Assembly (NCBI RefSeq): GCF_000027125.1
Contig: NC_017626.1
Length of the DNA stretch: 64,000 nucleotides
Source of the DNA: Escherichia coli 042
GTDB taxonomy: Bacteria > Pseudomonadota > Gammaproteobacteria > Enterobacterales > Enterobacteriaceae
Direction: 5' to 3' (one strand)
Part shown: one piece after another, positions 46,660-46,797 of the stretch
Layout of the letters: the number at the start of each line of letters is the position of its first letter
How positions within the stretch are numbered: position 1 is the stretch's first letter
Notes under the pieces: generated by a model
The model's input: only the letters and a program-made list of their open reading frames with translations
Databases searched by the model: none
What the model was told of the DNA's origin: nothing
Position numbers and translations under genes: made by a program

Positions 46660-46797
46660 GTGTTTGATTTTAGCAAACTGATTCGGGAGATTCGAGTGAT
46701 GGCTGAAAAATTATCCACCTGGAAGTTCATTCTTATCTGGCTGGTGTTTGTGATTATGGCCTCCGGTTATTTCATCGGTCAGATACGCTGGTGGTGA
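46660..46797 (+). CDS. small membrane protein (45 aa, GTG start) between endolysin and Rz
   Basis: AAGGAG 5 nt upstream of GTG; hydrophobic [20 protein letters not shown]. Confidence 0.4.

Follow-up and report, generated by a model that had tools for sequence, protein, structure and literature searches.

The stretch of DNA considered here, hereafter the window, comprises 64,000 nucleotides of Escherichia coli 042 (RefSeq assembly GCF_000027125.1, contig NC_017626.1), and within its prophage genes a 45-codon open reading frame (ORF) lies between an endolysin gene and an Rz gene. Pfam and PHROG matches identify the flanks of this ORF as a phage-21-type lysis cassette, with an S21-type holin, a lysozyme of the signal-arrest-release (SAR) type, and Rz with Rz1 nested within it (Table 1). 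An earlier note on this DNA had described the ORF as preceded at 5 nt by AAGGAG, starting with GTG, running for 45 codons, encoding one transmembrane helix, and stopping 1 nt before the Rz start codon, and the window sequence agrees with it in each particular. The note had gone on to suggest a lysis accessory, namely an antiholin or a lysis-timing peptide. Here, we report that the ORF is a real, conserved small membrane-protein gene under purifying selection and that it is part of a small mobile cassette, not a dedicated component of the lysis cassette; we propose, with more reserve, how the expression of such a gene might be controlled.

The predicted peptide begins with an amphipathic helix, continues into a transmembrane helix, and ends in RWW. 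Its single hydrophobic segment covers residues 22 to 42 (Kyte-Doolittle mean over 19 residues, 2.13), and residues 3 to 17, ahead of that segment, are strongly amphipathic (hydrophobic moment, 0.61). The same small one-helix build is common to all family members examined. Most copies start with GTG or TTG, which are weak start codons, and a purine run resembling a Shine-Dalgarno (SD) sequence is found at the equivalent place in the copies inspected. Because the N-terminal motif of the peptide is conserved across copies, we take the upstream GTG or TTG, and not an internal ATG, to be the site of initiation. Such an internal ATG, at codon 14 (M14), is invariant in 24/24 close copies and follows an invariant GAG located 9 to 12 nt upstream; this GAG is codon 10 (46690 to 46701 being codons 10 to 14) and is retained in all 24 copies although GAA is synonymous. 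The spacing between the two suits an internal start that would give a 32-amino-acid (aa) product, and some gene callers annotate the 32-aa form. Distant family members have L, I, or F in place of M14. As a separate matter, the last three sense codons, CGC TGG TGG, spell a Chi site, GCTGGTGG, on the plus strand (46787 to 46794); a Chi site as the reason for the RWW motif was rejected, since the Arg codon varies (CGC, CGT, or CGA) in other genera.

Selection on the protein is evident from pairwise comparisons between lineages, in which the ratio of nonsynonymous to synonymous substitution rates (dN/dS) is 0.03 to 0.4, with proportions of nonsynonymous differences (pN) of 0.03 to 0.4 and of synonymous differences (pS) of 0.4 to 0.8, close to saturation at synonymous sites. 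Conservation therefore holds for the ORF and not merely for the DNA, which is the distinction that the earlier note had asked to see drawn. The note had also held that its proposal would fall if homologues had interrupted frames in otherwise conserved DNA. Among copies picked by their leader DNA alone, blind to the ORF, the frame is intact in ∼48 to 49 of ∼50 (96 to 98%), and in 80 of 80 E. coli-type loci of IMG/VR the ORF has 45 codons and the junction is identical, with 1 nt and then ATGAACCGC. The ORF-blind sample supersedes an earlier count of variation (5% variable sites in the ORF versus 17 to 42% in the flanks) for which loci had been ranked by protein identity, making that sample a biased one. 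A chance ORF in an intergenic spacer, without function, would be in keeping with the short length, the mostly missing annotation, and the lack of a Pfam or NCBIfam family; it is refuted by a protein conserved across two bacterial orders, by dN/dS values well below 1, and by the intact frame in the ORF-blind sample, and its probability is negligible.

Relatives share 60 to 67% identity in Salmonella phages and 50% identity in Pseudomonas phages (tblastn, E 4e-7), and a profile search of a library clustered at 50% identity returned 58 cluster representatives. The family occurs in prophages or genomes of Escherichia, Salmonella, Citrobacter, Yersinia, Edwardsiella, Pantoea, Providencia, Sodalis, Trabulsiella, and Pseudomonas. 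Of 5426 complete E. coli genomes, 902 have the full-length cassette and ∼2085 have the leader or a related version of it; the copy in UTI89 (1407879 to 1408087) is 99.5% identical. Most RefSeq E. coli genomes have no annotated feature at the ORF, and to that extent the earlier description of a gene of unannotated size is apt; it goes too far in that PGAP sometimes calls WP_000459345.1 (“hypothetical protein”) here and that the peptide matches phrog_6632 over its full length (E 1.2e-29, residues 1 to 45 on profile positions 1 to 45), a record of unknown function that holds the protein alone and no RNA element. The suspicion that size filters would miss it was correct, as the gene is genuine and usually overlooked. 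Sequence profiles from Pfam, NCBIfam, PADLOC, and the PDB contained no relative of the peptide (33 members were used in the Pfam and NCBIfam scans). Neither the peptide nor the RNA element described below appears in those databases, in Rfam, or in the papers searched, in which no earlier description of the peptide, the leader, or an RNA was found, and supplements from ribosome profiling (Ribo-seq) of strain Sakai gave no match.

Upstream of the ORF is a conserved leader, which had gone unmentioned in the earlier note, as had the antisense promoter predicted to accompany it. All 24 representative copies present the same order: an A-tract, a GC-rich hairpin, and a T-tract, then an A-rich linker, and then a hairpin of 4 to 7 bp with one arm overlapping the SD sequence. 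The left hairpin (13-bp stem according to the scan) stands upstream of the ORF in each of the 24; the sole exceptions, with no hairpin or an atypical one, are the most distant and weakly matching loci, L141 and L143. A covariance model (R1) was built on the minus strand, and 36 strong copies were found among the collected loci. For the whole element in these copies, 93.2% of alignment cells are paired and 14/18 pairs change on both sides. The left hairpin contributes 7/11 pairs with compensatory changes (95.7% of cells paired), and all 7 pairs of the second hairpin change on both sides (88.9% of cells paired). The covariation score of 0.382 compares with 0.166 in shuffled alignments, none of 500 of which reached 0.382, and with values of ≤0.136 in slid controls. 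Within the left hairpin, G·U and A·C mismatches are about symmetric (13 versus 10), and reading outward from it either flank is rich in T, so that this hairpin looks like a bidirectional terminator. Rfam scans by E-value returned no family at the leader, only a match to STnc100 far upstream and a sub-threshold rimP-leader match caused by the terminator stem. A long-range pairing on the sense strand between the leader and codons 9 and 10, suggested by a single-sequence fold, was set aside as unsupported, RNAalifold giving no plus-strand consensus.

A promoter scan of 46501 to 46659 found no plus-strand promoter, and no sequence beyond the hairpin is conserved across contexts. In Salmonella phage SEN34, the stop codon of the upstream gene lies 27 nt before the hairpin stem and ∼23 nt before the conserved A-tract; because that stop codon is so close, a cassette-borne sense promoter cannot fit there.

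On the minus strand, constraint on a −10 box, a two-hairpin fold, a terminator, and an asymmetry between G·U and A·C pairs together lead us to predict a promoter within the first codons of the ORF and a cis-antisense small RNA (sRNA) of ∼80 nt, the existence of which we regard as fairly likely. Model R1 scores 69.8 bits at 46581 to 46667 (minus strand), and the minus-strand sequence from 46661 to 46579 folds into two hairpins at −23.2 kcal/mol (z = −3.0). In the second hairpin, which overlaps the SD sequence, G·U pairs outnumber A·C mismatches 34 to 1, and from this we take selection for the hairpin to act on the minus strand; among Pseudomonas-type copies, it is 4 to 7 kcal/mol more stable on that strand. 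Codons 3 to 6 (GAT TTT AGC AAA) read TTTGCTAAAATC on the minus strand, an extended −10 element (TGnTAAAAT), and their usage in diverged copies is restricted accordingly: codon 4 has T as its third base in 23/24, over five different amino acids; Ser5 is encoded by AGC in 23/23; Asp3 is encoded by GAT in 18/21; and the third base of codon 3 is T in 20/24. Arg12 is the rare codon CGA in 20 of 24 copies, which supplies TCG at the −35 position. Where residues change, the box is kept, as TGATATAAT (a perfect one) in two distant lineages, L137 and L139, and as TGATAAACT in another, L135. Ahead of unrelated ORF families, too, its register and its distance from the hairpin are unchanged. The synonymous positions of the box are thus frozen against the background pS given above. 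A different minus-strand promoter, flagged by a scan inside the ORF (46782 to 46753), overlies a variable part of the protein.

The cassette is not confined to lysis genes. Its left boundary in the window is at ∼46589: the preceding DNA, 46501 to 46588, is common to 933W-type phages, and homology ends there. Its GC content is 0.43, versus 0.50 in the surroundings. The endolysin-Rz junction is a known place for inserts. In the Qin prophage of K-12, which is without the gene, rrrQ and rzpQ overlap, whereas 933W-type phages carry ant and an unrelated 44-aa peptide in its place; homology to that pre-Rz peptide was considered and rejected (hhalign probability, 0.6%). Elsewhere, the gene separates a GpV-type baseplate spike gene from the baseplate gene after it (phage SEN34 and a Pantoea prophage), and it is also found in the gap between tail genes K and I and at the I-J junction of Pseudomonas phages, between the head protease and the major capsid protein, after the portal gene, and in cargo zones among HicAB, ParE, RelB/YafQ, PrlF/YhaV, and Bro-N genes. 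Because many phages carry the cassette at these various late-operon places, we conclude that it is not a dedicated lysis part. In 21/24 representative contexts, the closest long ORF upstream shares the strand of the gene, a co-orientation with late genes that fits reliance on read-through late transcription.

These contexts bear directly on the earlier suggestion of a lysis accessory, which in its specific forms would be an antiholin, a timing factor, or a releasin-like partner acting on the S21 pinholin, the SAR endolysin, or Rz. It is true that in the window the gene sits within the late lysis operon 1 nt from Rz, and that in Salmonella, Citrobacter, and Edwardsiella it lies 3′ of endolysins of several unrelated families (and 5′ of one in a Pseudomonas-type contig), a proximity more frequent than late-operon junctions taken at random would give and amounting to some enrichment around lysis genes. 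Small membrane proteins are known to regulate SAR endolysins, as releasin does in phage Mu, and the invariant M14 and GAG could constitute a second start, as in dual-start holins. Against this, the same gene and leader also occur far from lysis genes, in toxin-antitoxin (TA) cargo zones and at junctions of baseplate, tail-tip, head, or portal genes; close 21-type cassettes lack the gene or hold unrelated peptides; and M14 gives way to other residues in distant members. The antiholin idea in particular finds no sequence link, since the peptide has no holin or antiholin match in Pfam or PHROG. Regulators of this kind (the 68- and 71-residue S21 proteins and Mu releasin) resemble our peptide in being small membrane proteins beside a pinholin and a SAR endolysin; they differ in that this family is not tied to lysis genes, association with an endolysin holding in the window and in some genera only. 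On balance, a dedicated lysis accessory appears unlikely.

The leader is also found with other peptides. A DNA pattern consisting of the hairpin and T-tract alone was run over IMG/VR and gave 118 matches, 108 of which are followed by a one-helix ORF of 42 to 60 aa drawn from a few families: that of the present ORF (∼50), MRKYKLILLRLTMKNG... (∼40; phrog_1115 and phrog_4493), and MINFSGGDW... (11). The PHROGs matched behind the leader (phrog_1115, phrog_4493, phrog_12997, and phrog_4906) are all of unknown function, MINFSGGDW... has no PHROG match, and none of the leader-borne peptides has a Pfam family. In each of these families, a minus-strand sequence resembling a −10 box adjoins the start codon, and many of the peptides end in IRWW. 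Additional leaders precede unrelated small membrane ORFs in several loci (Table 1), and one prophage (L094) has three leader copies. At the lysozyme-Rz junction of other E. coli prophages, one to four different small one-helix ORFs stand in tandem behind the same hairpin and leader; members of these arrays include the 933W-type MSDKLIT... peptide, ...DDISRALAFAIKW...ALKS, and ...AFAIRIVAIAVLVWAIRWW.

Such arrays raise a further possibility, that the peptide is conflict cargo acting on the host membrane, by superinfection exclusion, anti-defence, or abortive infection, either as a lysogenic-conversion moron or as a late anti-defence factor. The moron-like insertion between genes that are adjacent in relatives, the lower GC content, the hot spots shared with TA and Bro-N genes, the hypervariability of the arrays in close E. 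coli prophages, and the three leaders in one prophage would all suit such a role. There is, however, no sense-strand promoter for expression in a lysogen, no PADLOC family matches the peptide, and the upstream terminator, masked SD sequence, weak starts, and predicted antisense RNA point instead to silence in the lysogen, although none of this speaks against a late-acting anti-defence role. We consider this explanation improbable.

The interpretation that we propose instead starts from what is present at the locus: a selected gene in a mobile cassette mostly co-oriented with late genes, two covarying hairpins, weak start codons, a masked SD sequence, and no sense promoter. From these we infer antisense RNA production, expression in the late phase only, membrane activity or toxicity of the peptide, and a contribution to lysis. 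Specifically, we suggest, giving the idea an even chance, that the compact mobile cassette at 46589 to 46797, inserted at the endolysin-Rz junction, works like a type I TA locus whose toxin gene lacks a promoter and that it thereby restricts production of a membrane peptide to the late phase. During lysogeny, the ∼80-nt RNA would be made constitutively from the antisense promoter; the RNA would pair with the start codon and SD sequence of stray sense transcripts and would stop at the hairpin, and silencing would be reinforced by the terminator-like hairpin, the masked SD sequence, and the weak start codon. On induction, Q-antiterminated transcription from pR′ would read through in excess, and the peptide would be made alongside the lysis proteins, with translation of Rz becoming coupled to its own. 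The peptide would enter the inner membrane with its amphipathic helix in the cytoplasm and its RWW tail in the periplasm, where it might most plausibly perturb the membrane or its potential and so aid the firing of the pinholin and SAR endolysin. That the putatively membrane-active peptide helps this system to fire is the least supported step, and we advance it only as a doubtful possibility.

Several observations weigh against this proposal. Profile searches found no similarity to a known toxin, holin, or defence protein, and canonical type I toxins are transcribed from promoters of their own, of which none is seen here. The −35 element is poor (TCGnAn, <4/6 matches), and a consensus scan did not call the promoter. 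AT-rich codons after the start also favour translation and could explain part of the synonymous bias, but not the invariant AGC. In enteric copies the SD hairpin is equally or slightly more stable on the sense strand, and the alignment from which pairs were counted was fitted to the covariance model. Folding z-scores of the short leaders are individually modest (mean, ∼−1.0 to −1.2); because they are weak, the case rests on covariation and strand asymmetry. The hypervariable small-peptide arrays at the lysozyme-Rz junction look more like conflict-driven cargo than like a lysis helper. Apart from these points, the invariant GAG at codon 10 and ATG at codon 14 are not accounted for by the antisense promoter model.

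Should the proposal extend to the other leader-borne families, these would form a widespread, previously unrecognised class of phage cassettes in which a leader of ∼90 nt and a cis-antisense sRNA gate interchangeable one-helix peptides, placed singly or in arrays at many junctions within late operons. As membrane effectors, the peptides would stay silent in the lysogen until late transcription released them to serve as lysis triggers or as late anti-defence or exclusion factors, with a type I TA-like design serving as a safety lock on late genes. We put this forward tentatively, at somewhat less than an even chance. If the antisense RNA is real, it would represent a new family of cis-antisense sRNAs and small membrane proteins in Enterobacterales and Pseudomonas prophages, would mean that phages place TA-style locks inside late operons, and would account for the small ORFs that crowd the endolysin-spanin gap of Stx-type and other lambdoid prophages. 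In any case, searching DNA for the leader is a good way of locating small membrane-peptide genes overlooked by gene callers.

The junction with Rz allows a different role for the ORF. Its last codons, TGG TGG TGA, provide the SD-like sequences GGTGGTGA and TGGTGGTGA for Rz, and because the gap is 1 nt and TGGTGGTGA resembles an SD sequence, translation of Rz is probably coupled to that of the ORF in this window, a point that matters for engineering of, or deletions within, the cassette. The ORF might accordingly be a regulatory upstream frame only, whose translation gates Rz while the peptide itself is functionless. There is an experimental precedent in the Gifsy-1 prophage for the succession of a terminator, a small ORF with a sequestered ribosome-binding site (RBS), and a coupled gene (isrK-orf45-anrP; PMC4825925). 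The likeness extends to prophage read-through of a terminator into an ORF of ∼45 codons, with its RBS in a hairpin and its stop abutting the next gene. It is nonetheless an analogy and not membership, since IsrK, a sense-strand sRNA, acts as an activator in trans, and orf45 starts with ATG and is conserved in its nucleotides but not in its protein (PMC4825925). Identity of our ORF with orf45 or IsrK was rejected on these grounds and because neither IsrK nor IsrJ has a match in the window or in related loci. With its amino acids strongly conserved against a background of saturated synonymous sites and many copies lacking a close downstream gene, the present ORF is very improbable as a frame of purely regulatory function.

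Comparison with other known systems likewise yields resemblance without membership. In symE-symR, the antisense promoter is just inside the ORF and the RNA covers the RBS and start codon, much as the RNA predicted here, from a promoter in the first codons, would cover the start codon and SD sequence. SymE is soluble, SOS induced, and expressed from its own promoter; it is not a membrane peptide, unlike ours, and the two are not homologous. Classical morons, such as HK97 gp15 and lambda bor and lom, consist of a promoter, a gene, and a terminator and are expressed in the lysogen. The cassette shares with them an extra gene between genes that are adjacent in relatives, horizontal spread into many phage types, and lower GC content; it differs in that its terminator-like hairpin is upstream, its predicted promoter faces backward, and both a sense promoter and a terminator 3′ of the gene are lacking. 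It is thus moron-like in its spread, with its signals arranged the opposite way. A Hok locus is equipped with its own promoter, together with a mok reading frame and fold-back elements. The hokW-sokW locus of Sakai prophage Sp5 is a type I TA system whose toxin rises on induction and aids phage release in prophage-mediated lysis (PMC8621323), and it serves as a precedent for a contribution of such a system to lysis. Like that locus, the cassette encodes a small inner-membrane peptide in a lambdoid E. coli prophage, with an antisense RNA that is only predicted here; unlike it, the cassette has no sense promoter and lies inside late operons, and the sequences are not similar. At 45 aa and with one transmembrane helix, the peptide falls within the range of type I toxins (<60 aa, one helix), but Pfam and NCBIfam scans (33 members) and Rfam scans found none of the known toxin or antitoxin families (Hok, Ldr, Ibs, TisB, and Zor; Sok, Sib, IstR, etc.). 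With no toxin promoter, no homology to a known family, and a protein conserved as that of orf45 is not, the cassette fails to belong to any of these systems.

Table 1. Features of the cassette and its surroundings in the window, followed by related loci in other prophages (coordinates of those loci)
Feature	Position	Strand	Basis or remark
S21-type holin	45373-45591		PF04971
SAR-type lysozyme (endolysin)	45967-46500		PF00959
Predicted cis-antisense sRNA, ∼80 nt	46581-46660	−	Would cover start codon and SD sequence, ending at hairpin/U-tract
Left-end element: A-tract, GC-rich hairpin, T-tract	46589-46628	Both	Stem-loop at 46591-46623; terminator-like each way
Second hairpin	46629-46653	−	Plus strand: 3′ arm runs into SD sequence; minus strand: 5′ stem-loop of predicted antisense RNA
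SD sequence AAGGAG	46649-46654	+	Read from sequence; 5 nt 5′ of GTG
45-codon gene for peptide with single membrane-spanning helix	46660-46797	+	GTG at 46660, 45 sense codons, TGA at 46795-46797; ORF list, phrog_6632, 58 clusters, dN/dS, peptide features
Predicted extended −10 element TGcTAAAAT	46667-46675	−	Within codons 3 to 6
Weak predicted −35 element TCGAAT	46690-46695	−	17-bp spacer to −10
ORF/Rz junction	46798-46801	+	1 nt between TGA and Rz ATG (46799)
Rz	46799-47263		PF03245; Rz1 nested at 47019-47201
Small-peptide arrays at lysozyme-Rz junction	L144 1501-1747; L145 1501-2053; L146 1501-1897		Other E. coli prophages
Additional leaders	L094 5621-5879 and 7147-7384; L125 4551-4782; L130 2593-2854; L143 2711-2956		Before unrelated small membrane ORFs

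Some further observations concern the DNA around the cassette. In the 933W-type phage AU5Stx1 (L088, 1308 to 1460, downstream of R), the first ∼90 nt after the lysozyme stop match 46501 to 46588 of the window, and the sequence then runs into a different terminator-like hairpin ahead of ant. An IsrK-like sRNA was suspected downstream of R in this phage and was dropped, Rfam giving no match. The interval between holin and lysozyme holds a DUF1327/YdfR-like gene (45596 to 45873, plus strand) in two overlapping frames, 45596 to 45691 and 45688 to 45873; it looks frameshifted, and PGAP marks an identical DUF1327 locus as an incomplete pseudogene.

At the head of the late operon, just 5′ of an ORF of 617 aa (43372 to 45225), the Rfam family STnc100 matches 43000 to 43149 on the plus strand with 87 bits, the 5′ end of the match being the edge of the searched region. 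Between the 617-aa ORF and the holin gene (45226 to 45372), a region in which the Rfam scan gave no match, there is a terminator-like hairpin with a long T-run at 45308 to 45336 (plus strand). A 2026 preprint on Pas sRNAs concerns these other parts of the prophage region: it relates STnc100 to the prophage sRNA PasD, located upstream of a sialate esterase gene, and it places PasA and PasC between the esterase and the holin, which matches the position of the hairpin at 45308 to 45336.

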